From Candidatus Shapirobacteria bacterium (GTDB lineage Bacteria; Patescibacteriota; Microgenomatia; UBA12405), in the NCBI GenBank assembly GCA_041661765.1, contig JBAZTV010000002.1, positions 8,083-72,082 of the forward strand: a stretch of 64,000 nt of DNA, in the 5' to 3' direction. Within the stretch, counting starts at the first letter, position 1; each line of letters begins with the position of its first letter. The notes under the pieces are model-generated. The model had not been told where the DNA came from and ran no database searches. It was given only the letters and a program-made list of their open reading frames with translations. Positions 5,827 through 59,731 of this stretch are shown piece by piece. Both the position numbers and the translations under genes were made by a program.

Positions 5827-5875
5827 GCCTCCCTGTCAAGGGAGGTGGTCTGAAATTTAAGACCGGAGGGTTTTA
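5827..5875 (+). repeat. GC-rich double-hairpin intergenic element, family copy a
   Basis: gcCTCCCtgtcaaGGGAGG, then ggtctgaaatttaagacc, then gGAGGGTTTTaaa. Confidence 0.6.
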
Positions 5876-5897
5876 AATACTTAATAAACTTTACAAC

Positions 5898-6956
5898 TTG
5901 ACAAACTTTCTAAATAAAAAAAATATAATTGCCCTCGCCCCCATGGACGGCATCACCGACGAAGCCTATCGTCTTCTTCAATCTGAAATTGCCAAGCCTG
6001 ATTTACTTTTTACTGAATTTGTCAGTGCTGAAGGCATCAGTCATGGTGGAGTTAAATTATACGACACTCTTTTATTTTCGGCCAAAGAACGCCCAATTAT
6101 AGGCCAATTATTTGGCAAAAATCCGGAAAGTTTTTATAAATCCGCCATTATTTTATCCGAACTGGGTTTTGATGGCATCGACATCAACATGGGTTGCCCC
6201 GCCAAAACTGTCACTCAAAATGGTAGTGGCGCTGCTCTTATTGCTAAACCAGATTTAGCTGTCGAAATAATCCAGGCCACTAAAAAGGGGATTGATGACT
6301 GGTTTTCCGGCAAAATCAAAGTCACTGGTCTCGGCCTTAATCAAAAAAGTCTGGCAGTTATCGAAAGAAACAAAAAATATTCTGGCATTGTAGAGACGCA
6401 TTGCAATGCGTCTCTACATAAACTCCAAAAACCAACCATCTCTGTTAAAACTCGCCTTGGAATTTCTGAATCAATTATTGAAATCTGGGCATCAATTTTA
6501 TTAAACCAAGACTTAGATTTTTTAACCATTCACGCTCGCACCCTCAAACAAGGTTATGCTGGATCTGCCGATTGGTCTGAAATTAAAAAAGTGTCGAAAT
6601 TAGCCAAAAATACTAAAACCAAAATTTTTGGCAACGGTGACGTTCAATCAAAATCTCAAGGTATAGAATTTTGCCAAAAGTACGGCGTTAATGGTGTTTT
6701 AATTGGCCGAGCTGCTTGTGGCAATCCTTGGTGTTTTAACGATTATACCGCCACTCCAAAAGAGCGATTTTCTGCCATGCTTCTTCATGCCCAATTTTTT
6801 ACCGAAATTTTCCCCAATCGTCGTTTCGACAGTCTTCGCAAAAACTTTTTATTTTATGCCTCTGGTTTGATCAATGCAAAACAATTAAGGTCAAAATTAG
6901 TCCGATTAAATTCAATTGAAGATCTTTTACAACTTGAAGCCGACTTTCAATCCTGA
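5898..6956 (+). CDS. dus: tRNA-dihydrouridine synthase (Dus family)
   Basis: IALAPMDGITDEAYR N-terminal motif. TIM-barrel FMN pattern ...GFDGIDINMGCPA... and ...HARTLKQGYAG... Confidence 0.8.
   Translation: MTNFLNKKNIIALAPMDGITDEAYRLLQSEIAKPDLLFTEFVSAEGISHGGVKLYDTLLFSAKERPIIGQLFGKNPESFYKSAIILSELGFDGIDINMGCPAKTVTQNGSGAALIAKPDLAVEIIQATKKGIDDWFSGKIKVTGLGLNQKSLAVIERNKKYSGIVETHCNASLHKLQKPTISVKTRLGISESIIEIWASILLNQDLDFLTIHARTLKQGYAGSADWSEIKKVSKLAKNTKTKIFGNGDVQSKSQGIEFCQKYGVNGVLIGRAACGNPWCFNDYTATPKERFSAMLLHAQFFTEIFPNRRFDSLRKNFLFYASGLINAKQLRSKLVRLNSIEDLLQLEADFQS
6389..6418. repeat. Perfect 30-bp palindrome tgtagagacgcattgcaatgcgtctctaca embedded in frame in dus, encoding (I)VETHCNASL(H)
   Basis: The sequence equals its own reverse complement. 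It shares the core tgtagagacg / cgtctctaca with the intergenic palindrome at 29526-29564. Confidence 0.7.
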
Positions 6957-6970
6957 TAAAGTTAAACGGT

Positions 6971-7381
6971 ATGCCAAACGAAAATCAAAATCCAAACCAA
7001 GTTGCAAATCTGTTAAATATTGAATCGCTCATCAATTCTTCGACTGCCAGATTTGATGTTCTTCAAAAAGAATATCAGGAGCAAAAATCACAACTCGATT
7101 CTATTCTAGACAGTGATATTGAATACCAAGAAATCGCTCAAGAAGCTCAAAAACAAGCCAAACTAAAAACCATCGCCAAACAAAAGGTAATGGTTCGTCC
7201 CGAAGCTGCTCAACTAGTTGAAAAAATGAAAGATGCTCACATTCAAATCAAAGAATTAAAAACTGCCATGTCAGATTATTTAGCCCAATTTGTTATTTTG
7301 TCTGGTACTAATCAAATCGAAGGTCCAGATGGTGTTCTTCGCCAGATAATTTACACTGCTAAACTAGTTAAAACAAAATAA
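6971..7381 (+). CDS. Hypothetical coiled-coil protein
   Basis: ORF with N/Q-rich N-terminus. No recognised motif. Confidence 0.4.
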   Translation: MPNENQNPNQVANLLNIESLINSSTARFDVLQKEYQEQKSQLDSILDSDIEYQEIAQEAQKQAKLKTIAKQKVMVRPEAAQLVEKMKDAHIQIKELKTAMSDYLAQFVILSGTNQIEGPDGVLRQIIYTAKLVKTK

Positions 7382-7396
7382 GTTATAATTACAATT

Positions 7397-7708
7397 ATGA
7401 TCAATCTAAATAAAGAAAACTTTAAAACCGAAGTTTTAGATTTTGACGGTAAAGTCTTAGTCGATTTTTGGGCTCCCTGGTGTGGCCCCTGTCAAATGCT
7501 TACTCCTGTCATGGAAGAAATTAGTAATGAAATGTCAGGAAAAGTCAAAGTCGCTAAAGTAAATGTTGATGAAAATCCAGAGTTATCAACCGAACACAAT
7601 GTTTCTTCAATTCCTTTAGTCGTTTTGTTTAATAAAGGTCAAATTATAGATACATTTATTGGCTTCAAGCAAAAAGAAAATTACATTAATGCCATAAATA
7701 AGGCATAA
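7397..7708 (+). CDS. trxA: Thioredoxin
   Basis: WAPWCGPCQ active site. About 100 aa. Confidence 0.85.
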   Translation: MINLNKENFKTEVLDFDGKVLVDFWAPWCGPCQMLTPVMEEISNEMSGKVKVAKVNVDENPELSTEHNVSSIPLVVLFNKGQIIDTFIGFKQKENYINAINKA

Positions 7709-7711
7709 TAA

Positions 7712-8707
7712 ATGGATTTAATTAAATTAAAAAAAACTTTAGATTTACTCGACCTTCCTGCTTTTCGGTATCGTCAAATAGTTAAAAACTATCATTCTGG
7801 TCGCTATTTAAATTTCGACCAAATGACAGATCTTTCCCTTGATCTTCGCCAAAAATTGTCAGAATCTTTAAAATTACTATCAGTAACCGAGGAAAAATTA
7901 ATTGGAGATGAATCGACTCAAAAAGCCTTATTAACTTTATCTGACGGTCAAAAGATCGAATCGGTTTTTATGGATTATGATGATTGGCTAACCGCTTGTG
8001 TCTCTAGTCAAGTCGGTTGTTCTCTTGGTTGTCATTTTTGCGCCACTGGTAAAATGGGTTTTAAAAGAAATCTTACTACTGAAGAAATTGTTGATCAAAT
8101 TTTATATTGGAACCAAAAAATTTACCCAAAGTATATTGGCAGGGTTGTTTTTATGGGCATGGGTGAGCCATTTTTGAACTGGGACAATGTTTTGGCGGCT
8201 ATTAATATTATTAATGCTGACAACGGATTAAACATTGGTGCTAGAAAAATTAGCATCTCAACTGCTGGTATTGCCGATAAAATTATTGAATTTGCCAATC
8301 TTAACACTCAAATAAATTTAGCTGTTTCTCTCCATTCTGCCGATCAAAAAATTAGAGAATCCTTTATGCTAATAGCCAAAAAATATTCTCTATCTCAACT
8401 TAAAAATGCTTGTAATTATTATGTCGGCAAAACTAATCGTCAATTGTTTTTTGAATACGCCTTAATGGATATTAATACCAGCCAAAACGATGCCAAATTA
8501 TTAATTGATTTTATAAATTCCAATCGTCTTTTCTTTTTAAATTTAATTCCACTTAATACAGTTGAGGGTGGCATGACTCCAGCTTCTCCAAGCCAACAAA
8601 AAGCTTTTATAAACTATTTAGATCAATCTAGAATTGAATATTCTCTCCGCCGTTCCTTTGGTCAAAATTTTGCCGCTGCCTGCGGCCAATTAATTACCGA
8701 CAAATAA
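7712..8707 (+). CDS. rlmN: Radical SAM 23S rRNA (A2503 C2) / tRNA methyltransferase RlmN
   Basis: LPAFRYRQIVKNY N-terminus. CxxxCxxC radical-SAM cluster in ...SQVGCSLGCHFCATG. ...MGMGEPF... Confidence 0.85.
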   Translation: MDLIKLKKTLDLLDLPAFRYRQIVKNYHSGRYLNFDQMTDLSLDLRQKLSESLKLLSVTEEKLIGDESTQKALLTLSDGQKIESVFMDYDDWLTACVSSQVGCSLGCHFCATGKMGFKRNLTTEEIVDQILYWNQKIYPKYIGRVVFMGMGEPFLNWDNVLAAINIINADNGLNIGARKISISTAGIADKIIEFANLNTQINLAVSLHSADQKIRESFMLIAKKYSLSQLKNACNYYVGKTNRQLFFEYALMDINTSQNDAKLLIDFINSNRLFFLNLIPLNTVEGGMTPASPSQQKAFINYLDQSRIEYSLRRSFGQNFAAACGQLITDK

Positions 8708-8726
8708 TTAAAATTAAAAATTAATT

Positions 8727-8777
8727 TCTCCCTTTCTTAAGGGGAGATGTCGAACAAAGTGAGACAGAGAGGTTTTA
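8727..8777 (+). repeat. GC-rich double-hairpin intergenic element, family copy f (terminator position for rlmN)
   Basis: tCTCCCtttcttaaGGGGAGa, then tgtcgaacaaagtgagaca, then gAGAGGTTTTaa. Confidence 0.55.
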
Positions 8778-8795
8778 ATTGGATATAATACTCCC

Positions 8796-9746
8796 ATGTT
8801 AATCGATGAAGTTAGAATTACAATCAAAGGTGGCGACGGTGGAAATGGCTCTGCTCATTTTTATAGCGATGCCTTTCGTCCCAAAGGTGGCCCAGACGGC
8901 GGCATTGGTGGCGACGGTGGCTCTGTTTTTTTTGAAGCCGTTTCCGACATCAGTAAATTAAATCAATTTCGTCATGCCAAAGTTTATACTGCCCAAAACG
9001 GCGAACAAGGTGGTCACAATAATCGCACTGGCCACAATGGTGAGGATTTAATTATCCAAGTTCCAGTTGGTACTCTTGCCACCTATGATAATGGCACTTC
9101 AATTGAGTTAACTAAATTAGGTCAAAAAGTTTTAATGGCCAAAGGTGGCAGTGGTGGTCGTGGTAATTTCTGTTTTAAGTCATCCACTAACCAAACTCCT
9201 CTAGAAAAAGAATTAGGTTACAAGTGTCAGACAAAAAAATTATTTTTACAATTAAAATTAATCGCTCAAGTCGGTTTAATTGGTTTACCTAATGCTGGTA
9301 AAACCAGTCTCTTAAACGAACTCACAACCGCTGATGCTAAAGTTGCTAATTATTCTTTTACCACCCTCGAACCAAATTTAGGTGTCATGAAAAATGGTCT
9401 AATTATTGCCGATATTCCAGGACTTATTGAAGGTGCGGCCGAGGGTCGTGGTCTTGGTGTTAAATTCTTAAAACATGTCGAAAGAACCAGTCTTTTAATT
9501 CATTGCATTGCTGCCGATTCAAGTGATCCTTTAAAAGATTATCAAACTGTCCATCAAGAATTAAATAATTACAGTTCTAATTTAGCTAATAAACCAGAAA
9601 TAATTGTTCTAACCAAATCAGACACTCTTGACCCAAAAGAAATTACAAAAATTCAAAAATTAATTAAAGCTCAAATTTCCACGTCCATTGTTGATCCTGA
9701 AAGTATTAAAAAACTCAACGATCTCATCACCAAAAATTTAAAATAA
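8796..9746 (+). CDS. obg: GTPase Obg
   Basis: Gly-rich Obg fold GGDGGNGSAHF...GGPDGGIGGDGG. G1 motif GLIGLPNAGKTSLL. Confidence 0.85.
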   Translation: MLIDEVRITIKGGDGGNGSAHFYSDAFRPKGGPDGGIGGDGGSVFFEAVSDISKLNQFRHAKVYTAQNGEQGGHNNRTGHNGEDLIIQVPVGTLATYDNGTSIELTKLGQKVLMAKGGSGGRGNFCFKSSTNQTPLEKELGYKCQTKKLFLQLKLIAQVGLIGLPNAGKTSLLNELTTADAKVANYSFTTLEPNLGVMKNGLIIADIPGLIEGAAEGRGLGVKFLKHVERTSLLIHCIAADSSDPLKDYQTVHQELNNYSSNLANKPEIIVLTKSDTLDPKEITKIQKLIKAQISTSIVDPESIKKLNDLITKNLK

Positions 9747-9749
9747 ATT

Positions 9750-10661
9750 TTATCTTAAAATATCTCTTTCTGCCCAGTGTTTATCTATTTCAACGGTCAA
9801 TTCCAAAAATACTTTTCGACTAGACATTAATTCCAATTCTTTTCTAGCGTTATAACCAATTTCTCTTATTTTTTTTCCACCCACCCCAATAATCATTTTT
9901 TTATATCTATCAGCCGTAGTTAAAATTCTCGCTTTAATTAAAATTAATTTTTTCTTATCAACCACACTATCCACTTCCACATTAACTGAATAGGGTACTT
10001 CTTTTCTTAAAAATAAATAGGCTTTTTCTCGAATAATTTCAGCAATATAATCTTTTGAACTTAAACTAATAACCGGCCCTTTTTTAGATTCCATTATCTC
10101 TAAATCCTCTTCGGTTAACTTGGAATCTTTTTCCGGTAACAATTCAAAAATAAGATTAATTAATCCTTTAACATTAGTTTCTTTAATGGCGCTTACTGAA
10201 ATCACTTCATCAAATTCGTCTTCCAAATAATTATATTCAGCTAAATGATCCTTACTACCAATTGCCTGATCGATTTTATTATAAACCAAAATTTTTTTGG
10301 CTTTCGATTTTCTAACCAATCCAATTACTTTATTTTCTTCTTCAGTTTTTGGTCGGGAAATATCCAAAAGACAAATTACCACATCGGCTCTACCAACTTC
10401 CTTGGGGGCTTCAGTATTAACCCGTTTACCAATTAAATCGGACACTTTATTAATAATTCCTGGAGTGTCAGAAAAAATAATTTTTCCTTTTTCACTACTA
10501 AAAACTACTCGTGCATTTTTTCGAGTTGTTTGAGCCATTGGTGAAGTGATAGCCACTTTTTGACTCATTATTGCGTTAAGTAAAGTAGATTTTCCAGTAT
10601 TAGGTCGCCCTAAAATCACCACCCGTCCAATTTTTACTTTTTCCTCAATTATTTTTCGCAT
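9750..10661 (-). CDS. era: GTPase Era
   Basis: VVILGRPNTGKSTLLN G1 motif, DTPG, NKID, and a C-terminal KH domain. Confidence 0.85.
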   Translation of the reverse strand: MRKIIEEKVKIGRVVILGRPNTGKSTLLNAIMSQKVAITSPMAQTTRKNARVVFSSEKGKIIFSDTPGIINKVSDLIGKRVNTEAPKEVGRADVVICLLDISRPKTEEENKVIGLVRKSKAKKILVYNKIDQAIGSKDHLAEYNYLEDEFDEVISVSAIKETNVKGLINLIFELLPEKDSKLTEEDLEIMESKKGPVISLSSKDYIAEIIREKAYLFLRKEVPYSVNVEVDSVVDKKKLILIKARILTTADRYKKMIIGVGGKKIREIGYNARKELELMSSRKVFLELTVEIDKHWAERDILR

Positions 10662-10750
10662 TCGTCATATTTTACCAGGTTTTTTGAATTTAAACTAACT
10701 CGTTGCCAATTTATATTCTCCAGGTAAAATATAAAGACTATCAAAACTAT

Positions 10751-10779
10751 TTGACACTTAGCAAACCAAGTGTTAGACT
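10751..10779 (+). promoter_or_regulatory. Putative sigma-70-type promoter for lon (TTGACA-17-TAGACT), ending 7 nt before the ATG; possibly leaderless
   Basis: Sequence match only. Confidence 0.35.
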
Positions 10780-10786
10780 GCTAATT

Positions 10787-13165
10787 ATGCCAGAAAATAT
10801 TAATCAAAATCCAATTCCAGCTCCACAACCTTTAAGAAAAGTATTACCCTTAATTCCTCTTCGTAATATCGTTTTATTCCCATCAGTTGAAACATCACTT
10901 TTTTTTGGCCGTAAAGAATCAATGAATTCATTACTACATGCCTATGACAACACTAATAAATTAGTCATCATTACCGCTCAACAAAATTCTCGCACTGAAA
11001 AACCAGAATACAAAGACCTTTACAATGTTGGTGTTTTAGCCAAAATTGAACATATTCTTCAAAGTGATGGCAGTCTCCATGCTATTGTTAAAGGAATTTC
11101 TCGTGTCAATATTTTAAATTTAATTCAAACAGAGCCATTTTTCATGGTCGAATATGTTGATCTTCCAGTTGTCCCTGAGCCAGTAGCCGAAATTCAACAA
11201 TCCGCCGAAACTCTTTTAAGTCAATTAAAAAAAGCTTTTGCCATGGGTCGTCAATTTGATCTTCCTGCTATGATGCAACTCAGCACTGGTGTTTCTAGTG
11301 GTGACTTAGCCGATCAAGTTTGTTTCTCGGTCGAAGGAAAAATACCCGAAAAACAGGTGCTATTGGAAACACTAATTGTCAGTCAAAGATTAAAAGCGGC
11401 TACTGAATATTTAATTCAAGAAATGAAAGTTGCTGAATTAGAAAGATCCATTGAAGAAAAAACTCAAGAAAAATTTAACACTGGTATCAAAAGAAATGTT
11501 TTAGAGGAAAGAAAACGTCAAATTGAAAAAGAATTAAAACGTCTTGGTCAAAACAGCGGTGGTGAATTTTCTGATTTAGAAAAGAAAATTAAAAATAAAA
11601 ATATTCCACCAGAAGTTAGAAAAAAATTAACCAAAGAATTAGAACGTCTCACTGAAATGGGATCTATGGCTCCAGAATCAGGTTATATTAGGACCTATTT
11701 AGAAACAGTATTAGAATTGCCTTGGGGGAAATACAATAAATCAGATATTAGCTTGCCTAAAGCTTCAAAAATTCTCGATCAAGATCATTACGGCATCAAA
11801 GACGTTAAAGAAAGAATTTTAGAATATTTAGCTGTTTTAAATTTAAAAAGTAAAAACAAAAAGAAAGGTGAAGAAGTTTCTCAAACTGCCAATATTTTAT
11901 GTTTCATCGGCCCTCCAGGTGTCGGTAAAACTTCTCTTGGAAAATCAATCGCTAAAGCTATGGGTAAAAGTTTTATCCGTGCCTCTCTTGGTGGAATTCG
12001 TGACGAGGCAGAAATCCGCGGTCACCGTCGAACTTATGTTGGTGCCATGCCCGGTAGAATTGTAAAAGGTCTCAAAGACGCCAAATCAATGAATCCAGTT
12101 TTTATGTTAGATGAAATTGATAAAATTGGTGCCGATTATCGCGGCGATCCATCAGCTGCTCTTTTGGAAACTCTCGACCCCGAGCAAAATCGCGAATTTG
12201 CCGATCATTACCTCGATTTCCCTCTCGACTTATCTAAAGTTTTTTTCATTTTAACCGGCAATGATATTTCCACAATTCCAGGCCCCCTAAGAGATCGTTT
12301 GGAAATTATCAATTTTTCCGGTTACACTCAAGATGAAAAATTCCATATTGCCAAAAAATACTTAATTAAAAAAGAGCTTAATGCTAATGGTCTAAAAGAA
12401 AGTAATATCGCCGAAATTAAGGATGAAACTATTAAATTTATTATTGATAAATACACTCGAGAAGCTGGAGTTCGCGGTTTGGAACGAACATTTGCTAGTC
12501 TTTTTAGAAAAGCTGCAAAAAAGATTATTGTTAATCATACTAATAAAGTTGACTTAAATGATCCGATTATAATTAAAAAATTTTTAGGCCCTGCTAAATT
12601 TACTTCAACTCTAAAAGGCAAAAAAGATGAAGTCGGTCTCTCTACTGGTTTGGCTTGGACTTCTGTTGGTGGTGAAATTTTATTTATCGAAGTCAATGTT
12701 ATGCCTGGCAAAGGCCAGTTGATTTTAACCGGAAAACTTGGTTCAGTTATGAAAGAATCTTGTCAAGCCGCCCTTTCGTTTATTCGTAGTCAAGCCAAAG
12801 AATTTGACATTAAACAAGATTTTCACAAAATCGACATTCATATTCACGTCCCCGAAGGTGCCACTCCAAAAGATGGTCCAAGTGCTGGCGGTGCCATTAC
12901 TACTGCTCTAATTTCTGCTCTCAAAAAAGTTGCAGTTCCTCGTGATATCGGTATGACTGGTGAAATTACTCTACGTGGAAATATTTTAGAAATCGGCGGT
13001 CTTAAAGAAAAATCAATTGCCGCTCACCGTGCCGGACTTAAAACTATTTTTATTCCAAAAGATAATGAAAAAATTCTGATCAACATTCCCAAAGAAGTAA
13101 AAAAAGACATTAAGTTCATTCCCGTCTCCCACTATTCCGAAATCTACAAAAAGATTTTTGAGTAA
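10787..13165 (+). CDS. lon: ATP-dependent Lon protease
   Basis: Lon N-domain LPLIPLRNIVLFP. Walker A GPPGVGKTSLGKSIA. Catalytic serine PKDGPSAGGA. Track ORF start 10703 trimmed to the ATG at 10787. Confidence 0.9.
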   Translation: MPENINQNPIPAPQPLRKVLPLIPLRNIVLFPSVETSLFFGRKESMNSLLHAYDNTNKLVIITAQQNSRTEKPEYKDLYNVGVLAKIEHILQSDGSLHAIVKGISRVNILNLIQTEPFFMVEYVDLPVVPEPVAEIQQSAETLLSQLKKAFAMGRQFDLPAMMQLSTGVSSGDLADQVCFSVEGKIPEKQVLLETLIVSQRLKAATEYLIQEMKVAELERSIEEKTQEKFNTGIKRNVLEERKRQIEKELKRLGQNSGGEFSDLEKKIKNKNIPPEVRKKLTKELERLTEMGSMAPESGYIRTYLETVLELPWGKYNKSDISLPKASKILDQDHYGIKDVKERILEYLAVLNLKSKNKKKGEEVSQTANILCFIGPPGVGKTSLGKSIAKAMGKSFIRASLGGIRDEAEIRGHRRTYVGAMPGRIVKGLKDAKSMNPVFMLDEIDKIGADYRGDPSAALLETLDPEQNREFADHYLDFPLDLSKVFFILTGNDISTIPGPLRDRLEIINFSGYTQDEKFHIAKKYLIKKELNANGLKESNIAEIKDETIKFIIDKYTREAGVRGLERTFASLFRKAAKKIIVNHTNKVDLNDPIIIKKFLGPAKFTSTLKGKKDEVGLSTGLAWTSVGGEILFIEVNVMPGKGQLILTGKLGSVMKESCQAALSFIRSQAKEFDIKQDFHKIDIHIHVPEGATPKDGPSAGGAITTALISALKKVAVPRDIGMTGEITLRGNILEIGGLKEKSIAAHRAGLKTIFIPKDNEKILINIPKEVKKDIKFIPVSHYSEIYKKIFE

Positions 13166-13168
13166 GCG

Positions 13169-14896
13169 CTACATTCTCTCCACTGTTTTTATTCCCAACA
13201 AGCCTAATCCTGTATGTAAAATACTTGCTGTAGTTTTAGTTAAAAATATTCTAAAAACCTCTTCTTTTTGATCAATAATTCTATTTTTTGCATAAAATTC
13301 GTTATATTTTCTTGCCACCCCCAATAAATATTCCGCAATCACAGAAGGGGAGAAGCGCGTCGATGCCTCCACAATTTTTTCCTCAAATCGATAAAATTCC
13401 TTAAGTAAGGCCATTTCATTATCATTAATATTTTCAGGAATTTCATTAATATTTTTTTGTTCTTTAACTTGAGTTTTATCTAAAACACTTTTACATCTGG
13501 CATAGGTGTATTGCAAATATGGACCAGAATCCCCATCTAAACTCATAATTTGATCCCAATCAAAAATTACATCTTTTCTTGGATCGCTAGACAAATCATT
13601 AAATTTAATTGCCCCAATAGCTACCGATTCAATCATTTTTCTTTTTTCTTCATTTGTTAAATCTTTTGCAACTGTACTGTTTTTAGCAACATCTTCGGCT
13701 TTTTCCATTGCTTTATCAATTACATCTGACAAATGAATCGTGTCACCCTTTCGAGTCGAAAATTTTCCTGTTGTCCATCTAATTAACCCATGAGCAATAT
13801 GAACCATACCTTGATCAGGCATCCAACCCATCATTTCGGCGGTTTTAAACACCTGTTTAAAATGTAATTGTTGATCAGCTCCAACCTCATAAATTATCAA
13901 ATTTGGTTTCCAATTTTCCAATCTATATTTAATTGTGGCCATATCACGGGTAAAGTATGTAGTTGTTCCATTTGATTTTTGCAACATCGCTGGCGGCATG
14001 TCATCAAATTCTATTATCGTTGCCCCCTCACTTTTTTTTGTAATTCCTTTATCAACAATTTCTTTAGTTATTCCTTCCAGCTTTTCTTCATAAAACGATT
14101 CACCATGAATAAAATCAATTTTTACATCCAACAATCCATAAACTTTATCAAATTCAATCATCGAAATATCAATACATTTTTGCCAAATTTCTTTAGCCTC
14201 CTTATTTCCTTTTTCTAATTTTACAAACCAGTCTCGACCCTCATCGATTAATTTTTCATCAGTTTCCGCTTCTTTGTGAAATTTTACATATAACTTTTCT
14301 AATTCTTCAATTGTCAAATCATTTAAATCTTTTTTATTCCACTTTTTAATTGCCGCCACTAACTTTCCATACTGAGTACCCCAATCACCAATATGATTAT
14401 CACCAATGCAATTCCACCCTAAAATTTTATAAATATTATAAATAGCCTGTCCGATATTTGTCGATCGCAAATGTCCAATTCCAAAAGGCTTAGCAATATT
14501 TGGTGCCGAATAATCAATCACTACAGTTTTTCCATTTCCAACTTCACTCAATTTATTTCTAAACTCAATTTCATAATTAATACTTTCTGCCTCCTTAATT
14601 AAAAATTCTGGTTTCAAATAAAAATTAATAAATCCGGCTCCAGCCATTCCAACTTTTTCCAAAAAATCATTTCGATCAATACTATTTACTATTTTTTGAG
14701 CCAATTCTTTTGGGTTTTTTGCTTGCCCGTCGTAGCCTTGGCGAAGTCGGGCCAAAGTCATGGCAATATTCGTTGAATAGTCTCCAAAATTTACATCACT
14801 TGGATGTTCAAGTTTTATTTCTTCCTCAATTACAGATAATTTCAAATCTCTACAACTTTCAAGAATTATTTTTTTAATTTCTTCAGCAATTTTCAT
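13169..14896 (-). CDS. argS: Arginyl-tRNA synthetase
   Basis: Class I HIGH region (SAPNIAKPFGIGHLRS) and KMSK-like (KFSTRKG) motifs. About 575 aa. Start taken at the Met of MKIAEEIKK. Confidence 0.85.
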   Translation of the reverse strand: MKIAEEIKKIILESCRDLKLSVIEEEIKLEHPSDVNFGDYSTNIAMTLARLRQGYDGQAKNPKELAQKIVNSIDRNDFLEKVGMAGAGFINFYLKPEFLIKEAESINYEIEFRNKLSEVGNGKTVVIDYSAPNIAKPFGIGHLRSTNIGQAIYNIYKILGWNCIGDNHIGDWGTQYGKLVAAIKKWNKKDLNDLTIEELEKLYVKFHKEAETDEKLIDEGRDWFVKLEKGNKEAKEIWQKCIDISMIEFDKVYGLLDVKIDFIHGESFYEEKLEGITKEIVDKGITKKSEGATIIEFDDMPPAMLQKSNGTTTYFTRDMATIKYRLENWKPNLIIYEVGADQQLHFKQVFKTAEMMGWMPDQGMVHIAHGLIRWTTGKFSTRKGDTIHLSDVIDKAMEKAEDVAKNSTVAKDLTNEEKRKMIESVAIGAIKFNDLSSDPRKDVIFDWDQIMSLDGDSGPYLQYTYARCKSVLDKTQVKEQKNINEIPENINDNEMALLKEFYRFEEKIVEASTRFSPSVIAEYLLGVARKYNEFYAKNRIIDQKEEVFRIFLTKTTASILHTGLGLLGIKTVERM

Positions 14897-14897
14897 A

Positions 14898-15269
14898 TTA
14901 AAAAACCTTTGATCCAACCGGTAAATCTTGGTCAGGTAATAATAAACTGACTATTTCTGTAAGCTCCCCTTGGCCGTCCGTAGCTTCAGCGGAGGAGGCG
15001 AAAATCATCGCTTCTGACAATTCACCCATAATTTTTCGTGGTTTTATATTAGTTACAAAAACAGTTTTTTTACCAATTAAATCAGCGGGTGAATACCATT
15101 TTTTAATTCCCGAAAAAATATTTCTCAATTTTTCTTCGCCAAAATCCACTTGAAGTCTTAACAATTTTTCCGATCCTTCAACTTCAATCGCCTCTTTAAT
15201 TTCACCAATCTTAAATTCCACTTTGGCAAAATCATCATATTTAATTTGATCCATGCCCAATTTTATCAT
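14898..15269 (-). CDS. tRNA-binding domain protein (CsaA / Trbp111 / MetG C-terminal EMAP-like)
   Basis: DDFAKVEFKIGEIKEA...SGI...Y.P..LIGKKTVFV.N.KPRK..G..SE.M.FA. The track start is TTG. An ATG at 15269 or 15254 is more likely. Confidence 0.6.
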   Translation of the reverse strand: MIKLGMDQIKYDDFAKVEFKIGEIKEAIEVEGSEKLLRLQVDFGEEKLRNIFSGIKKWYSPADLIGKKTVFVTNIKPRKIMGELSEAMIFASSAEATDGQGELTEIVSLLLPDQDLPVGSKVF

Positions 15270-15270
15270 T

Positions 15271-15307
15271 CCCCTCCTTGTCAAGGGAGGGGTCAGGGGT
15301 GGGTTTT
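15271..15307 (+). repeat. GC-rich hairpin element, family copy b, in a divergent promoter region (not a terminator position)
   Basis: CCCCTCCttgtcaaGGGAGGGG, then tcaGGGGTGGGTTTTTat. Confidence 0.55.
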
Positions 15308-15351
15308 TATGTTATCCTATAAACACAATTAATTATTAATTTAAAATTTTT

Positions 15352-16713
15352 ATGATTAATCTAGATACTTCCATTTTTAAATCTTACGATATTCGTGCTA
15401 TTTACCCTACTCAAGCCGACGAAGAATTAGCCGAAAAAATCGGTCGTGGTTTCGCTAAATATTTAAATTTCCCCACCAAAGTAATCGTCGCTCGTGATGG
15501 TCGTATTTCTGGTGAGTCAATGAAAAATGCCTTAGTTGAGGGATTAATTAAGGTTGGTGTTAATGTTATTGATATCGATTTGGCTTCCACTGATTCGTTT
15601 TATTACGCTTGTCAAACTCGTGACCTTCCAGGCATTACCGTTACAGCCAGTCATAACCCAAAAGAATATACCGGTTTTAAAATGGTCAAAAAAATTCCAG
15701 AACTTTTGTCAGGCGATGCTGGTATTAAAGAAATTAAAGAATATATATTGAATAATGATTTACCTGCCGACAGTGTCACTCCAGGCACGATTGAACATCA
15801 AGATGTTAAATCTGAATTTGTTGACTATGTTCTGTCTTTAATCGACATTTCTAAAGTCAAAAATTTTAAAATTCACGCCGACACTGCCAATGGTATGGTT
15901 GGTCCATTTTTAGAATTGGCTTCTCAAAAACTTCCAACGGTAGAATTTATAAAAATGTTTTGGGACATTGACGGTAATTTTCCAAATCATGGTGGTGATC
16001 CATTGTTAGCCGCAAATAGAACGGAAATTCAATTACGAGTTCCAAGTGAAGGCAGTGATTTAGGAATTATGTTTGATCCCGATGGTGATCGTTTTTTTGT
16101 TATCGATAAAAAAGGTCGTTTTATTCCAGGTGATTTTATGACCGCCATTCTCGCCGAATATTTTATTAAAAAACATCCGAGTTGTAGTATTGTTTATGAT
16201 ATTCGTGCCTCCAAGGTTGTATCGGAAACTATTTTTGCTTGTGGTGGAAAACCACTAGCCAATCGTGTTGGTCACACTCATATTAAAGCTCGTATGAAAC
16301 AGGAAAATGCCTATTTTGGCGGTGAAGTTTCTGGTCATTATTATTTTAAAGATTTCTTTTTGTGTGACACCGGTTTAGTAACTTTTATCTATCTTCTCGA
16401 TTTCTTATCTACTACCAATAAGCCTCTCGAGACGATTATCGACGAAATGTTAGCCAAATACCATATTTCTGGTGAAATAAATTCAAAAGTTGCCGATGTT
16501 CCAAGTGTTTTAACTAAACTTGAAAATACCTACAGTTCAAAAACCATCGCCCCGATTGAGCGTATGGATGGTATGACTTTTGAAATGGGTGATTGGCGTT
16601 TTAATATTCGTTCATCAAACACCGAGCCTCTACTTCGTCTTAATCTTGAAGCCAACACAGAAGAACTCATGGCTCAAAAACGTGATGAAGTTTTAGCCAT
16701 TATTAACGGATAA
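15352..16713 (+). CDS. Phosphomannomutase / phosphoglucomutase
   Basis: Active-site TASHNPKEYTGFK. Metal loop FDPDGDR. Sugar-binding GGEVSGH. Confidence 0.8.
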   Translation: MINLDTSIFKSYDIRAIYPTQADEELAEKIGRGFAKYLNFPTKVIVARDGRISGESMKNALVEGLIKVGVNVIDIDLASTDSFYYACQTRDLPGITVTASHNPKEYTGFKMVKKIPELLSGDAGIKEIKEYILNNDLPADSVTPGTIEHQDVKSEFVDYVLSLIDISKVKNFKIHADTANGMVGPFLELASQKLPTVEFIKMFWDIDGNFPNHGGDPLLAANRTEIQLRVPSEGSDLGIMFDPDGDRFFVIDKKGRFIPGDFMTAILAEYFIKKHPSCSIVYDIRASKVVSETIFACGGKPLANRVGHTHIKARMKQENAYFGGEVSGHYYFKDFFLCDTGLVTFIYLLDFLSTTNKPLETIIDEMLAKYHISGEINSKVADVPSVLTKLENTYSSKTIAPIERMDGMTFEMGDWRFNIRSSNTEPLLRLNLEANTEELMAQKRDEVLAIING

Positions 16714-16716
16714 TTT

Positions 16717-17916: not shown

Positions 17917-17919
17917 ACT

Positions 17920-18435
17920 ATGGAAAATAGTAGTGAATTAATAAATCCGAGTTTAGAAAAAAAAGAGTTTCCAACAGTTTTAAAAATTTGTAATGTTGAA
18001 AATCTTGAAGAACTTAAAAATATTTGTGCAATTGGAGATTCTGAAGAAGTTGAAGTAGGGGATTATTTTTTATTAAGAAAAAATGACAACATTACTACTT
18101 GTAGTTACGGTGCTGGTCCTTGTATTTCCGGTGTTCTTCAAACCAACGATAATAAGCTTTATATGTTTCATAGTTTTGCAGATAGATTTTTGACCTTAGA
18201 ACAAAAAGAAATTATTAAAAATACAAAAAAAGGAATTATTGGTAGTGGAAATAAAGAATTATTAGATACTTTTAAGTCCGAATTTAAAAATGGAAATATT
18301 AAAGTTCTTCCACCTCCCACTGGAGGAAATTATGACTTTAATATTGTTTTTGTTAAAGCCAAAAATAAATATAAAGTTTCACCTGGTATTTATTTTTGTC
18401 ATGATAATATAGAAAATACCGACCAACAATTATAA
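17920..18435 (+). CDS. Hypothetical protein
   Basis: ORF only. Confidence 0.4.
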   Translation: MENSSELINPSLEKKEFPTVLKICNVENLEELKNICAIGDSEEVEVGDYFLLRKNDNITTCSYGAGPCISGVLQTNDNKLYMFHSFADRFLTLEQKEIIKNTKKGIIGSGNKELLDTFKSEFKNGNIKVLPPPTGGNYDFNIVFVKAKNKYKVSPGIYFCHDNIENTDQQL

Positions 18436-18456
18436 AAAATTCATTTATAATAAATC

Positions 18457-18930: not shown

Positions 18931-18992
18931 AAAATATTTACCCCTTTTCTTAAAAGGAGAAATAGCTAAGCCAAAAGGGATCTTATTCAACC

Positions 18993-19023
18993 AAAAAAAT
19001 GCTGGCAAACGCCAGCATTTTTA
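18993..19023. terminator. Bidirectional rho-independent terminator between convergent genes
   Basis: aaaaaaATGCTGGCaaacGCCAGCATttttt has an A-run and a T-run flanking an 8-bp stem. Confidence 0.7.
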
Positions 19024-19042
19024 ATATACTCTTTGAGTAAAA

Positions 19043-19720: not shown

Positions 19721-19832
19721 TTATAATAGCATTTTTTAAATAATTTAAAAACAAAAAAAGGCCCTGATAACTATTTTGATTTTTACATCAACAAGTCACC
19801 AAGACACTTATTTTCTCTTCTTGTTACTAAAA

Positions 19833-20288: not shown

Positions 20289-20416
20289 ACATGGAGATTT
20301 CTTTTTTTTCACACAAATCACCAATCTTTCTTTTTTATTGTAAATGTACAAGAAGAGAGCTTCAAAAAAACAAAAAATAAAAAACAATTTTTTTATCTTT
20401 ATTTTTAAGTAGGGAA

Positions 20417-24705: not shown

Positions 24706-24731
24706 AAAAATAAAATTTCTATTTATAAATC

Positions 24732-24775
24732 GCCCTGTTAAGGGAGATGTCCCGCACCGCGGGACAGAGGGTTTA
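24732..24775 (+). repeat. GC-rich double-hairpin element, family copy c (plus orientation between two minus-strand genes)
   Basis: gCCCTgttaaGGGag, then atgtcccgcaccgcgggaca, then GAGGGTTTaaa. Confidence 0.5.
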
Positions 24776-29581: not shown

Positions 29582-32254
29582 ATGCTAGACAAAATAATCG
29601 TTAAAGGTGCTCGAGAAAACAATCTAAAAAATATTTCTTTCGAGTTTCCCAAAAATAAAATGACCGTTTTTACTGGAGTTTCCGGCTCTGGTAAATCTAG
29701 TATGGCTTTTGACACTCTTTTTGCCGAAGGTCAGCGTCGCTATGTCGAAAGTTTGTCGTCATATGCTCGTCAATTTTTAGGCAATATGAAACGGCCAGAC
29801 ATTGATTTAATTGAAGGATTATCTCCATCTATCGCCATAAATCAAAAAGCTATTTCTCATAATCCTCGTTCCACTGTTGGCACTGTCACTGAAATTTATG
29901 ATTATCTTCGTTTACTCTTTGCCAGAATTGGTCATCCACATTGTCCAAATTGTGGTCGCGAAGTTTCCCCTCAAACAAGTAAACAAATTGTTACTCAAAT
30001 TTTAGACATCGCCCGTCTTCAAGCTCACGGCTTAAACATATATCGAATTTTAATTTTAGCCCCAATTGTTCGTGATAAAAAAGGCGATTTTCATGGTTTA
30101 GTTGAAAATTTAAGAAAACAAGGTTATAAATGGCTCCGTGTTGACAATCATATTATCGATCTTTATTCAGATTTTGGCATTGCCAAAACAAATAAGCACA
30201 ATATAGACACTGTCGTTGACCGACTTTCTATTAATAAAGATAATTTTAAAGATGAAAAAGCTATTTATGATCGTCTTATTAATGATGTTGAACAGGCCAT
30301 GAAACTATCCAATGGTCTAATTATTGTTTCTGAAGTTAAAGATCCAGGTTTTACTTTTCCTGATAATCCAAAAGAAATGGCGGACACTCTTTATTCAGAA
30401 AATTATGCCTGTCCTATCTGTAATATTTCACTCCCAGAAATTGAACCACGTCTTTTTTCTTTCAATTCTCCTCAAGGCGCCTGTCACGAATGTAAAGGTC
30501 TCGGATCCAAATTTCAAATCGATCGTTCCCAATTCCCCGAGTGGAAAGCCAAAATGCTCGAGGGTCGTTATATCAGTTCTCAAAGCGATGGAGTTCGCGA
30601 AGAACTGGAAAAATTTATGATTAAAGAAGAATGTTCAGCTTGTCACGGTTCTCGTCTTAATTCAGAAGCTTTATCGATCACTGTTTTAGGAAAAACAATT
30701 TACGAGATATCCACTCTTCCCATCGAAAAACTTGAAATTTGGATTAATAATCTTGAATTAGAATTACAAAATAACATAGAAAAAGAAATTGTTGCTCCCA
30801 TAAAAAAAGAGTTATTTGGTCGATTACAATTTTTATTGGCTGTTGGCCTTGATTATTTAAGTCTTGATCGTGAAGCTGGAACCCTATCCAGCGGTGAATC
30901 TCAGCGCATTCGTTTAGCTAGTCAAATTGGCACTGGGTTGACTGGAGTTTTATACATTCTCGATGAACCAACCATAGGTCTCCATTCTCGTGACAACGAT
31001 CGTCTCATCGGTACTCTCAAAAAATTAAAAGATTTAGGCAACACTGTTGTTGTTGTAGAACACGACGAAGATGTCATTAAAAATGCCGATCATATCGTTG
31101 ATTTTGGCCTCTATGCCGGAAAGCTTGGTGGTGAAATTGTTGCCCAAGGCAGTTTGGAAGAAATAAAAAATAATAATAATTCTTTAACCGGAAAATATTT
31201 ATCAGGTAAATTAAAAATCGAATCAAAAACTAAAGATGTCCCCCTTGTCAAAGGGGGATTTAGGGGGATTGAAATCACCAACGCTCGTCAATGGAATTTA
31301 AAAAATATAAATGTCGAATTTCCTCTCAATAAATTAATTTGTGTCACTGGTGTCTCTGGTTCAGGTAAATCAACTTTAATTCATGACACACTTTATGGTG
31401 GCGTTCGCAAATCTACCCTCGGTGTTTATTATGGAACCATTGGTCAGTTCGATAAAATAACTGGTTGTGAAAATGTTTCAGATGTTCTTCTGGTTGATCA
31501 ATCTCCAATTGGTCGCACTCCAAGGAGTAATCCCGCCACCTATACCAAAGTTTTCGACGATATTCGTGTTTTAATGGCTCAAACCATTGAAGCCAAATTA
31601 CACGGTTTCAGTCAGAGTCGTTTTTCTTTCAATGTCAAAGATGGTCGCTGTCCAGTTTGTGAAGGTCAAGGTCAAATAAAAATTGAAATGCAATTTTTGT
31701 CCGATATTTACGTTACTTGCGATGAATGTCACGGCAGTCGTTTTAAAGAGGAAACGTTAGAAGTCGATTATAAAGGAAAAAATATTGCTGAAATTTTAAA
31801 AATGACTATCGACGAAGCTCTTGAGTTTTTTAAAAATATTCCAAGTTTAAGGCGAAAATTAACTACCATTCAAGATGTAGGTCTTGGTTATTTAGAATTA
31901 GGTCAACCATCTAACACTCTTTCTGGAGGAGAATCTCAACGACTCAAAATCAGTCGTGAATTAGTCAAAAAATTTGATGGAAAAATGCTTTATATTCTCG
32001 ACGAACCAACCACTGGTCTTCATTTTTACGATGTCGATAAATTAATTAAAGTTTTGCGTCAATTAGTTAATAACGGTAATACTGTCGTTCTAATCGAACA
32101 CAATTTAGATGTTATCAAAAATTCAGATTGGATCATTGATCTCGGTCCAGAAGGTGGTGAAAAGGGTGGGGAAGTTGTTGCCATCGGTACCGTCCAAGAT
32201 GTAATGAAAGTTGCCAAAAGTTACACCGGTCAATATCTTAAAAAATCAACCTAA
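29582..32254 (+). CDS. uvrA: Excinuclease ABC subunit A
   Basis: Two ABC ATPase modules (GVSGSGKSS... and GVSGSGKST...) and Zn-finger CxxC pairs. Confidence 0.9.
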   Translation: MLDKIIVKGARENNLKNISFEFPKNKMTVFTGVSGSGKSSMAFDTLFAEGQRRYVESLSSYARQFLGNMKRPDIDLIEGLSPSIAINQKAISHNPRSTVGTVTEIYDYLRLLFARIGHPHCPNCGREVSPQTSKQIVTQILDIARLQAHGLNIYRILILAPIVRDKKGDFHGLVENLRKQGYKWLRVDNHIIDLYSDFGIAKTNKHNIDTVVDRLSINKDNFKDEKAIYDRLINDVEQAMKLSNGLIIVSEVKDPGFTFPDNPKEMADTLYSENYACPICNISLPEIEPRLFSFNSPQGACHECKGLGSKFQIDRSQFPEWKAKMLEGRYISSQSDGVREELEKFMIKEECSACHGSRLNSEALSITVLGKTIYEISTLPIEKLEIWINNLELELQNNIEKEIVAPIKKELFGRLQFLLAVGLDYLSLDREAGTLSSGESQRIRLASQIGTGLTGVLYILDEPTIGLHSRDNDRLIGTLKKLKDLGNTVVVVEHDEDVIKNADHIVDFGLYAGKLGGEIVAQGSLEEIKNNNNSLTGKYLSGKLKIESKTKDVPLVKGGFRGIEITNARQWNLKNINVEFPLNKLICVTGVSGSGKSTLIHDTLYGGVRKSTLGVYYGTIGQFDKITGCENVSDVLLVDQSPIGRTPRSNPATYTKVFDDIRVLMAQTIEAKLHGFSQSRFSFNVKDGRCPVCEGQGQIKIEMQFLSDIYVTCDECHGSRFKEETLEVDYKGKNIAEILKMTIDEALEFFKNIPSLRRKLTTIQDVGLGYLELGQPSNTLSGGESQRLKISRELVKKFDGKMLYILDEPTTGLHFYDVDKLIKVLRQLVNNGNTVVLIEHNLDVIKNSDWIIDLGPEGGEKGGEVVAIGTVQDVMKVAKSYTGQYLKKST

Positions 32255-56293: not shown

Positions 56294-56336
56294 GCCTCCT
56301 TGTCAAGGGAGGCCTCTCTGACGAGGGTGGGTTTTT
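56294..56336 (+). repeat. GC-rich double-hairpin element, family copy d
   Basis: gCCTCCttgtcaaGGGAGGc, then ctctctgacgagg, then GTGGGTTTTTac. Confidence 0.6.
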
Positions 56337-58444: not shown

Positions 58445-58450
58445 GGTTTA

Positions 58451-59638
58451 ATGTTTAAAAAAACTTTTTTTTTATTTTTAGCACTATCTTTTTTTTTGTT
58501 CATCCCAATTACTTCATACGCCGATGATAGAGAAGATTTAGAAAATAAAATCACAGAATACACTCAAAAACTTTCCGAATTAGGCACTGCCAAAAATACC
58601 TTAGCCAATCAAATAAAAATTTTAAGCTCACAATATGAATTAACCCTTTTAAGAATTACTCAAACTGAAAATTCAATCAAAAATCTTGAAAAAGAAATAA
58701 ACGGTCTTACTGTTGAAATTGACGGCCTAAACACTAAGCTAAACAAACTTTCCTCACTTTATGTTCTCCAGATAATTGAAAATTATAAACTTCAAAAAAA
58801 AGTTCCTCCGTTTGCTTTTTTGTTTTCATCTGACCTAAATAATTTTTTAGAACAATACAAATATGTTGCCAATGTTCAAAAGGCTAGTCAAACCAGTTTA
58901 ATTAATATGGAAACAGTCAGGTCTAATTATGATGCCCAAAAAACGGCCAAAACTCAAAAACAACAAGAAATGGAAACTCTTCAAAAAACATTAGCCACTC
59001 AAAAAACCACTCTTGATAATCAAAAAGCCGCCAAAGATAAACTTTTAGAAAGTACAAAAAATGACGAGAAAAAATACCAATCACTTCTTGCCGCAGCTCA
59101 ATCACAATTAGCCGCACTCAGAAGCTTCTCTAGTTCAGCTGGTGGAAGTAGTTGTTTGTCAGCATCTCCAGGTGATGGCAATGATCATAATTTTTATTCT
59201 CAAAGAGATCCTCGTTGGTGTAAACAATTCATTGGTAACTCTAGTGATACTATTGGCTCAGTCGGTTGTTATATTAATAGTATTGCTATGACTTATAAAA
59301 AACTAGGCTTTGACATTTCTCCATCAGCTTACGCCGCCAATTCTAGTAATTTTTGGAGCAATACCGCCTATATGCTCACTCCGTCTCCTCCGTTAGGCTA
59401 TACTTTTAAACAAGTTTCCTATAACGCTTCAACTGTCGACAATGAATTAAAAGCTGGCCGTTATGTCATTGCCCAAATGAGAATGAACACCATCGTCGGA
59501 ATGCATTTTATTGTGATTATTAGTGGAAGTAATGGCAATTACAAAATTCACGACCCTTGGTTTGGAGCAGACCAAAATCTTCCTTCTAACCTTTATTCTC
59601 TTAGTTCTATTATTAGCCTTCGTTTAATCACCAAATAA
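58451..59638 (+). CDS. FtsEX-associated coiled-coil protein with C-terminal papain-like (C39/CHAP/NlpC-like) cysteine peptidase domain (PcsB/EnvC analogue)
   Basis: Signal/TM, about 200 aa of coiled coil, then Cys (GSVGCYINSIA) and His (GMHFIVII). Position immediately after ftsEX. Confidence 0.5.
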   Translation: MFKKTFFLFLALSFFLFIPITSYADDREDLENKITEYTQKLSELGTAKNTLANQIKILSSQYELTLLRITQTENSIKNLEKEINGLTVEIDGLNTKLNKLSSLYVLQIIENYKLQKKVPPFAFLFSSDLNNFLEQYKYVANVQKASQTSLINMETVRSNYDAQKTAKTQKQQEMETLQKTLATQKTTLDNQKAAKDKLLESTKNDEKKYQSLLAAAQSQLAALRSFSSSAGGSSCLSASPGDGNDHNFYSQRDPRWCKQFIGNSSDTIGSVGCYINSIAMTYKKLGFDISPSAYAANSSNFWSNTAYMLTPSPPLGYTFKQVSYNASTVDNELKAGRYVIAQMRMNTIVGMHFIVIISGSNGNYKIHDPWFGADQNLPSNLYSLSSIISLRLITK

Positions 59639-59640
59639 AA

Positions 59641-59682
59641 AGCCTCCCTGTCAAGGGAGGTGCCCGAAGGGCGGAGGGTTTT
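59641..59682 (+). repeat. GC-rich double-hairpin element, family copy e1
   Basis: aGCCTCCCtgtcaaGGGAGGt, then gcccgaagggc, then gGAGGGTTTTaaa. Confidence 0.6.
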
Positions 59683-59689
59683 AAACACC

Positions 59690-59731
59690 AAAAACCCCTC
59701 CTTTTTTAAGGGAGGGGGAGGGGTAGGTTTT
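59690..59731. terminator. Bidirectional terminator / family copy e2
   Basis: aaaaaCCCCTCCttttttaaGGGAGGGGgaggggtaggtttt. On the minus strand it reads as a hairpin followed by a T-run for convergent gene 59740-60357. Confidence 0.55.

Follow-up and report, generated by a model that had tools for sequence, protein, structure and literature searches.

The 64,000-nucleotide stretch of Candidatus Shapirobacteria contig JBAZTV010000002.1 analysed here (positions 8,083 to 72,082 of the forward strand; assembly GCA_041661765.1), termed the window, has a G+C content of 32% and carries eight GC-rich copies of a short structured repeat, all of them solo units. These repeats probably belong to a large family of mobile DNA repeats of 35-60 nt that falls in the class of intrastrand class II purine-motif triplexes and whose full form is a cassette around a DUF559 nuclease gene, in a system resembling REP/RAYT. 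Their structural class has been described before, but no description of the DUF559 cassette, the strand polarity or the in-frame insertions in uvrA was found in the literature searched.

Seven copies were listed in the initial annotation, and all are present on the plus strand as it described, with coordinates right to within a few bases. The covariance model R1, built from 57 related copies and run on both strands of the window, matches all seven on the plus strand with 26-59 bits (E 3e-6 to 5e-17) and gives no comparable match on the minus strand. The 18-mer of hairpin 1, CCTCC[CT]TGTCAAGGGAGG, has four matches in the window at one mismatch or fewer, all on the plus strand, with 0 in shuffled sequences. 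An eighth copy is added by R1 at 31234-31273 (plus strand), within the uvrA open reading frame (ORF). A scan free of any model, defined by a hairpin with an all-purine 3' arm and a mirror tail, recovers six of the eight window copies and finds the uvrA copy with 0 mismatches. The proposed architecture of two hairpins and a tail in every copy holds for most copies; those at 15271 and 59690 have a linker of 1-3 nt in place of the second hairpin. The shared ending GAGGGTTTT stands as a conserved relation between the tail and hairpin 1 rather than as a motif, the bare 9-mer not being enriched (24 matches vs 25.7 expected). The gene contexts are also as first described, with copies 5827, 8727, 56294 and 59641 after plus-strand genes, 15271 between divergent genes and 24732 between two minus-strand genes.

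The alignment of 148 R1 matches from the window and 82 related loci defines the consensus unit: the pyrimidine arm, typically CCCTCCYT, is joined through a GTCA loop to the purine arm AGGGAGGG, and a connector leads on to a G-rich tail and then a run of T residues. The connector is formed either by 3-7 nt or by a single T and a closed hairpin. Hairpin 1 is paired in 96.9% of the alignment cells, and compensatory double changes occur in five of its eight pairs. Hairpin 2 is closed one T past the purine arm and directly 5' of the tail; of its 67 distinct sequences, 93% form a fold of 4 bp or more (median z -4.1), which indicates that the fold is kept and the sequence is not.

The tail is a mirror of the purine arm, that is, its reverse and not its complement. 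The whole purine run is mirrored by the tail in 102 of 143 distinct copies, with the loop-proximal AA appearing as TT, and for this reason the T run is partly mirror and not simply a terminator U-tract. At least 13 classes of arm each have their own matching mirror tail (for example arm AAGGGAGA with tail AGAGGGTT, AAGGGAAGGG with GGGAAGGGTT, AAGGGAAA with AAAGGGTT, AAAGGAGGGGG with GGGGGTGGATT and AAGGGGGGA with AGGGGGGTT), and the mirror score between purine arm and tail is 8.27, compared with 7.20 +/- 0.06 after random re-pairing of arms and tails. In 254 copies an arm G is faced by G in the tail in 96.7%, and an arm A by T in 63.8% or A in 32.5% (together 96.3%). Judged from the sequences, this code is that of a predicted antiparallel purine-motif intrastrand triplex with G.G-C, A.A-T and T.A-T triplets. 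The 148 aligned copies have the order of three blocks on one strand, with the pyrimidine arm followed by the purine arm and the putative reverse-Hoogsteen block. Loop 1 is 3-4 nt long, and loop 2 is 1-7 nt in the short copies and a closed hairpin of 12-26 nt in the long copies, where it leaves one free T at the junction yet exceeds the published limits for triplex loops.

The scan for the 18-mer, made in one genome per species, gives at least 106 loci, dominated by Shapirobacteria and by low-GC metagenome-assembled genomes (MAGs) labelled 'Gammaproteobacteria', two of which (L010 and L064) carry an orthologue of a window gene. R1 has 148-170 matches in approximately 0.7 Mb. The remark in the initial annotation that such a family is unusual in a small streamlined genome is misleading, as the family is abundant across Candidatus Shapirobacteria and E. 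coli and other bacteria were already reported to have repeats of this structural class (PMC4666352). Sphingomonads, Aminicenantes, Bacteroidota/Chlorobiota, a Spirochaetales MAG and others also have copies that carry a proper tail. By our own estimate, chance would give about 35 matches to the 18-mer in 596 Gb, and matches to the hairpin alone in other phyla are therefore not counted as members. The 2.9 million viral contigs scanned contain three hairpin-only matches, and carriage by phages was rejected.

Among the at least 106 loci listed there is one ORF family whose members, five in number, all abut repeat copies. The five ORFs are DUF559 proteins (Pfam PF04480, E 1e-27 to 1e-34) scoring 96-117 bits against a cut-off of 20.6. 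The association was approached from the side of the gene with 80 metagenome loci fetched by DUF559 similarity and then searched with R1. A minus-oriented copy lies 5-35 nt upstream of the DUF559 gene in 56 of the 80 loci, a plus-oriented copy is at or overlapping the gene's 3' end in 52, and both inverted flanking copies are present in 44; the gene ends account for 126 of the 145 R1 matches in these loci. Between cassettes placed in unrelated contexts the homology starts exactly at AAAACCCTCC, which is the left copy's outer tail, and stops exactly at GGAGGGTTTT, the right copy's outer tail, and these sharp common boundaries define the unit as inverted repeat, DUF559 gene and repeat, approximately 0.5 kb in total. 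Of 74 cassettes, 73 have an intact ORF, and the residues Asp-66, Glu-77, Asp-79 and His-83 are invariant in all 74 proteins. The relatives in the PDB are 3hrl (E 2e-27) and, weakly, the intron homing endonuclease 3r3p, both of the Vsr/DUF559 clade.

On the gene strand the loop of the left cassette copy is TTGACA; an AATAAT-like hexamer follows 17 nt downstream, the start codon comes close after it, and the exact TTGACA is present in 26 of 44 upstream copies. A promoter role within the cassette is, with moderate confidence, a possible reason for the conservation of the loop. As a general -35 box the loop TTGACA is plausible only in cassettes; the spacing at copy 15271 is wrong, and the AT-rich background makes -10-like hexamers cheap.

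The orientation of the repeats is independent of the flanking genes. The 114 intergenic copies from low-GC loci are distributed as 40 (-,-), 30 (+,+), 23 (-,+) and 21 (+,-), close to the background intergenic regions (about 33/33/17/17%), and divergent regions hold 20% of copies vs 17% expected, without depletion. With the repeats masked, the top strand of the repeat lies on the C-rich strand in 108 of 125 copies, and with the coding-strand effect removed by averaging the skew of plus and minus genes it does so in 65 of 68 copies from 37 loci. Orientation is uniform in 24 of 27 multi-copy loci. The window itself has a gene-independent skew of -0.18 on the plus strand, where all its copies lie, and the cassettes, having one copy each way, show no bias with respect to skew (18 vs 21). 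Gene-independent GC skew normally marks replication strands; in related loci (L030, L038, L094, L081, L098 and L054) it reaches +/-0.4. The C-rich strand carries dnaA in 3/3 cases, rpoB in 2/2, tuf in 1/1 and 57% of the coding bases. In these Shapirobacteria either dnaA lies away from the origin or the usual rule of a G-rich leading strand is reversed. Solo copies are oriented according to a replication-type asymmetry and not according to transcription.

The uvrA gene provides an example of insertion into coding sequence. The window copy lies in-frame within the hypervariable UvrA linker, where it encodes ..DVPLVKGGFRGI.., and at the DNA level three Shapirobacteria lineages have three different in-frame subtypes at the linker (CCCCCTTGTCAAAGGGGGATTTAGGGGGATT in the window, CCCCCCTGTCAAGGGGGGATCGAGGGGGGTTTT in L194 and CCTCCCTTGTCAAGGGGAGGTGCAGGAGGGGTT in L195). 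The closest relative, L196, with 92% UvrA identity, has no repeat in its linker. The site orthologous to 24732 is occupied by a different subtype in L063, and related genomes have an ordinary hairpin terminator in the place of copy 59695; in the orthologous comparisons, repeats are replaced by plain hairpins or by other subtypes. The family thus shows turnover, and its copies can end up within coding sequence. The flanks of the repeats are AT-rich and of low complexity (TTAAAG... and ...TTTTAA), too low for a target-site duplication to be called.

A second, unrelated hairpin family of REP-like type with a GTAG tag, GTAGAGACG(N)CGTCTCTAC, is present in the window at 6390-6417 and 29531-29559 (0 in shuffled sequences). 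The 6390 copy is in-frame in the ORF at 5898-6956 and encodes VETHCNASL, and the 29531 copy is located just upstream of uvrA, where L196 has two such hairpins. UvrA linker peptides such as VETHHDASLP occur in other lineages (P0106, P0109 and P0114), which suggests in-frame insertions of the GTAG-tagged family in the UvrA linker as well.

The class of the Shapirobacteria repeats is represented in E. coli by BoxC, which corresponds to the PIT elements of Hoyne and Maher (2000, 2002), as far as their work is cited in PMC4666352, and to the TMECO repeats of Holder et al. (2015; PMC4666352). The TMECO pattern, CCCTCNCCC N3-6 GGGNGAGGG N3 GGGNGAGGG, is described as a class II intrastrand purine-motif triplex that in vitro is stable by circular dichroism and nuclear magnetic resonance (NMR) with a melting temperature of 70-82 C, the NMR excluding a quadruplex (PMC4666352). 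Both families share the three-block design on one strand, the triplet code, G/C-rich stems of 7-10 nt and a first loop of 3-4 nt; the short-type copies also share a TTA(G)/TCA-like second loop with TMECO. The E. coli repeats are likewise multi-copy, mostly intergenic and sometimes arranged as inverted pairs. Closely spaced inverted pairs at L051 (4776-4893 and 6263-6379) and L102 (4425-4568), from sphingomonads and one Patescibacteria locus, resemble both REPIN doublets and the 'palindromic' pairs of TMECO in E. coli. Differences occur in the arms, which are CCCCTCCTT/AAGGGAGGGG in the Shapirobacteria family and CCCTCNCCC/GGGNGAGGG in TMECO, and in the loops, with GTCA conserved in the Shapirobacteria family and most of its copies having a second-loop hairpin of 12-26 nt, beyond the limits set for TMECO (3-6 nt and 3 nt) and in the ITxF search (1-6 nt) (PMC4666352). 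The Shapirobacteria family also differs in its strong orientation bias with GC skew, compared with a weak replichore bias in E. coli, in its in-frame copies within a gene and in its host, a 32% GC Patescibacteria genome. No mention of a flanking DUF559 cassette was found in the literature searched.

The DUF559 gene of E. coli K-12, ycjD (1351407-1351760, minus strand), has a degenerate pyrimidine/purine hairpin over its stop codon, and TMECO #9 (1351239-1351204, minus strand; Table 1 of Holder et al.) is located 168 nt downstream in the orientation of the gene. Between the ycjD hairpin and TMECO #9, which is intact, there is also a remnant of approximately 70 nt of a second DUF559 3' end (L193, NC_000913.3 1351040-1351830). 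The region has the look of debris from at least two cassette ends. Phylogroups A, B1 and C are reported to conserve the ycjD gene, and in others, such as B2, eefRABCD stands in its place (PMC12817139). The supplement of Holder et al. gives TMECO counts of 23 for MG1655, 29 for IAI1, 30 for W and 13 for UMNK88, and of 1-2 for CFT073, UTI89, IHE3034, S88 and others (PMC4666352). Of 5426 complete E. coli genomes, 3378 carry ycjD. With the strains placed in the phylogroups to which they presumably belong, the listed A/B1/C strains have 19-30 TMECO copies, UMNK88 with 13 being the exception, the D, E and F strains 6-15 and the B2 strains 1-2. Co-variation of ycjD and TMECO is what a partnership of repeat and enzyme predicts.

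The pyrimidine and purine arms form hairpin 1, with the variable hairpin as an optional connector, and the 3' mirror block would then lie in the major groove of hairpin 1 through G.G-C, A.A-T and T.A-T triplets. The fold may form transiently on single-stranded DNA, for example at a replication fork, and the repeats may act and spread there. In the full element, with two inverted whole repeats around the gene of a Vsr-like PD-(D/E)XK nuclease of the DUF559 family and the right repeat overlapping the gene's 3' end, the nuclease would recognise or nick the folded repeats and so drive or maintain the copies, as RAYT serves REP/REPIN. Single copies may incidentally terminate transcription (59695, on the minus strand) or supply parts of promoters (GAGACA in 8727), and such effects of individual copies are likely secondary. 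It is tentatively proposed that DUF559 (YcjD-type) nucleases might be the missing partner enzymes of triplex repeats, that a nickase acting on a single-stranded DNA fold might explain both the spread and the strand polarity, and that the partnership might be a widespread system of the REPIN-RAYT type.

Several observations weigh against a mobile triplex family served by a DUF559 nuclease. The comparison of the window with L010, L022, L060, L063 and L064 gives no clean empty site, excision or insertion event or target duplication, and no DUF559 gene is present in the 64-kb window or in approximately 9 kb beyond its left end; the contig extending the window leftward by approximately 9 kb also has no strong repeat copy. 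The leading-strand calibration failed, the marker genes being few and the tRNAs split 9 to 13 between the strands, and there is no switch of skew within several kb of dnaA. R1 gives no match on TMECO #9, so that homology between the Shapirobacteria and E. coli families is not established; the window copies have other arms and do not fit the TMECO consensus, and the Shapirobacteria repeats are of the same class and are not TMECO in the strict sense. In E. coli, dimethyl sulfate footprinting in vivo showed no PIT/TMECO triplex, mobility genes near TMECO were 'never found', no bias between the plus and minus strands was reported and the function was left unknown (PMC4666352). The own count of solo TMECO by replichore from Table 1 of the same paper is 8 vs 5. 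The co-variation of ycjD and TMECO is confounded by phylogeny, and the nuclease could be just a passenger, using the repeats or targeting them.

A passenger nuclease is part of the main, though rather unlikely, alternative, in which the repeats spread and persist without a dedicated enzyme, by replication slippage, recombination or gene conversion at a stable non-B structure, and DUF559 is a separate selfish or hitch-hiking gene that homes into repeats or uses them as a portable promoter and terminator. The absence of a DUF559 gene from the window, the membership of the homing endonuclease 3r3p in the DUF559 clade and the layout of the cassette, whose left repeat gives TTGACA with an AATAAT-like hexamer 17 nt on and whose right repeat overlaps the gene's 3' end, are all consistent with it, and Holder et al. 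associate TMECO with local instability and did not find mobility genes (PMC4666352). However, the composite of two repeats recurs with sharp boundaries in unrelated contexts and the link to the nuclease spans phyla and E. coli. On the presumed strain assignments, TMECO also falls to 1-2 in the E. coli lineages lacking ycjD. Slippage alone does not account for the way different subtypes reached new sites, among them the uvrA linker. Selection for host-beneficial polar DNA signals, similar to KOPS, Chi or replication pause sites and kept on one strand, would account for the very strong skew bias (65/68) and for the uniform orientation within loci, but is improbable given the fast turnover of subtypes at the same sites, the insertion into coding sequence, the inverted repeats around the nuclease gene and the weak replichore bias in E. 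coli (8 vs 5).

The initial annotation preferred a dispersed REP/MITE-like repeat to plain terminators, and this view is borne out by the background-like orientation, the in-frame uvrA copies and the failure, on the plus strand, of the four copies scanned under a simple terminator rule. Ordinary, possibly bidirectional, intrinsic terminators with a conserved sequence are a quite improbable explanation, although four window copies follow plus-strand genes, the 5' flanks are typically A-rich and the 3' flanks T-rich, hairpin 1 of copy 5828 is followed on the minus strand by CTTTAATTTA and was flagged in the terminator scan, and copy 59695 stands where related genomes have a plain terminator hairpin. 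On the plus strand the last hairpin and the T run are kept apart by a G-rich block of 6-10 nt, and the four copies within 5000-24999 all fail the simple rule there; copies lie inside uvrA, and orientation tracks GC skew rather than genes. PIT elements had neither promoter nor terminator activity according to Hoyne and Maher as cited in PMC4666352.

A regulator at the RNA level, either a switch in which the 5' CCUCC has two alternative G-rich partners or a quadruplex of G-runs, is highly improbable. CCTCC-GGAGG pairing is possible in the GGAGGG subtype and the short-type copies fit a G3+ quadruplex pattern. Pairing of the 5' arm with the tail does not covary (7.11 vs 7.16 when re-paired), which speaks against the two mutually exclusive Watson-Crick folds first suggested as a switch; the common GGGTGGG tails would give a U.U mismatch, and it is the mirror relation that covaries instead. 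The subtypes with two G-runs (AGGGAAA with AAAGGG, GGGGG with GGGGG and GGGGGG with GGGGGG) keep the mirror, and with only two G-runs an intramolecular quadruplex is impossible in them; NMR also excluded a quadruplex for TMECO (PMC4666352). The orientation is independent of genes. Neighbouring ORFs are unrelated apart from the DUF559 cases, with no common downstream gene family, and a leader or riboswitch of one gene family was rejected. Gathering and permissive searches of Rfam give no family at the gathering threshold, the closest being whalefall-1 (RF01762) with 10-13 bits vs a threshold of 37.

The probable mobile triplex family resembles several known systems. The REP/REPIN-RAYT repeats are likewise short, structured, high-copy repeats, with a gene between two inverted repeats and solo copies far outnumbering the gene, and they act as single-stranded hairpins, as is proposed for the Shapirobacteria family. 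That gene encodes a Y1 HUH transposase, whereas the Shapirobacteria family has a DUF559 Vsr-like PD-(D/E)XK nuclease, lacks the GTAG/CGTC tag in all copies and adds a mirror (triplex) block to the palindrome. Compared with a miniature inverted-repeat transposable element (MITE), the solo repeat is one end of a cassette and not a terminal inverted repeat pair. The IS200/IS605 elements and other single-strand transposons similarly have subterminal hairpins on one strand and an orientation tied to the replication strand; the Shapirobacteria family has no TnpA gene, and its ends are inverted whole repeats. The Rickettsia palindromic elements are also palindromic and in-frame in genes at tolerant surface or linker positions. 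They differ in sequence and host and are about 100-150 nt long, compared with about 30-60 nt for the Shapirobacteria repeats; to our knowledge they have no mirror block or linked nuclease. The cassette ORFs match PF04480 and 3hrl and keep the D..ExD..H residues of the Vsr/DUF559/I-Bth0305I clade, known members of which act in T:G mismatch repair or intron homing, and a tie of this clade to triplex repeats was not found in the literature searched.

BoxC/PIT/TMECO repeats have been known since the 1990s, and the literature found gives no function, mobility gene or mechanism of spread for them. The DUF559/YcjD domain, whose function is unknown, is very common. The physical link between DUF559 and triplex repeats in Patescibacteria, other phyla and E. 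coli K-12 offers a testable role for both, in a model organism, and if true would be a second, enzymatically unrelated example of a long-lived partnership of repeat and enzyme of the REPIN-RAYT type. For the annotation of small genomes of the candidate phyla radiation, the repeats account for recurrent GC-rich intergenic islands, for odd peptides rich in P/L/S/R/G inside genes such as uvrA and for spurious extensions of ORFs through stop-free repeats. Extrapolated from eight copies in 64 kb, streamlined genomes can carry of the order of a hundred such repeats.

Table 1. Repeat copies of the window, ordered by position (Y-arm, pyrimidine arm; R-arm, purine arm)
Copy	Positions (strand)	Type	Y-arm	Loop 1	R-arm	Connector	Mirror tail	Bits	Mirror mismatches	Remarks
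1	5828..5874 (+)	long	CCTCCCT (5828-5834)	GTCA (5835-5838)	AGGGAGG (5839-5845)	T (5846), hairpin 2 (5847-5864)	GGAGGGTT (5865-5872), then TT	59.4	0	
2	8727..8776 (+)	diverged long	TCTCCCTTT	CTT	AAGGGGAGA	T, hairpin 2 imperfect (8749-8765)	AGAGAGGTTTT	26.2	1	
3	15271..15308 (+)	short, no hairpin 2	CCCCTCCTT	GTCA	AGGGAGGGG	TCA	GGGGTGGGTT, then TTT	52.1		recovered by model-free scan
4	24730..24774 (+)	long	TCGCCCT (one G.A mismatch)	GTTA	AGGGAGA	T, hairpin 2 GTCCCGCACCGCGGGAC	AGAGGGTT	47.8		between two minus-strand genes
8	31240..31270 (+)		CCCCCTT	GTC	AAAGGGGG	ATTTA	GGGGGATT	19.2	0	in-frame in uvrA linker
5	56295..56336 (+)		CCTCCTT	GTCA	AGGGAGG	short hairpin 2 (CCTC..GAGG)	GGTGGGTT, then TTT	48.8		recovered by model-free scan
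6	59643..59682 (+)	long	CCTCCCT	GTCA	AGGGAGG	T, hairpin 2 GCCCGAAGGGC	GGAGGGTT, then TT	56.9		recovered by model-free scan; identical in related genome L022
7	59695..59731 (+)	degenerate short	CCCCTCCTT	TTTT	AAGGGAGGGGG		GGGGTAGGTTTT	36.6	2	

Copy 3 is positioned 17 nt upstream of the ATG at 15254 of a minus-strand gene and has same-site copies in L010 and L064. The hairpin of copy 7, read on the minus strand, is followed by TTTTT and lies at the 3' end of the convergent gene 59740-60357. A promoter-like site at 8761-8798 consists of GAGACA, 17 nt and TATAAT, with the -35-like hexamer inside copy 8727 and the TATAAT ending 6 nt before the ATG at 8796, which suggests a leaderless mRNA and a promoter part derived from the repeat. 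Between two minus-strand genes at 24265-24310 there is a GC-rich segment, CCGCGCACAGTATCCGAGGTGCACTACCGAAGGGGTCGAGCACGG, and the orthologous place in L063 holds a triplex-type repeat instead. Among the related loci, L039 of a Shapirobacteria MAG carries an RNase P RNA (3829-4067, minus strand) that scores 123.5 bits on the archaeal model RF00373, reported as a clan match.

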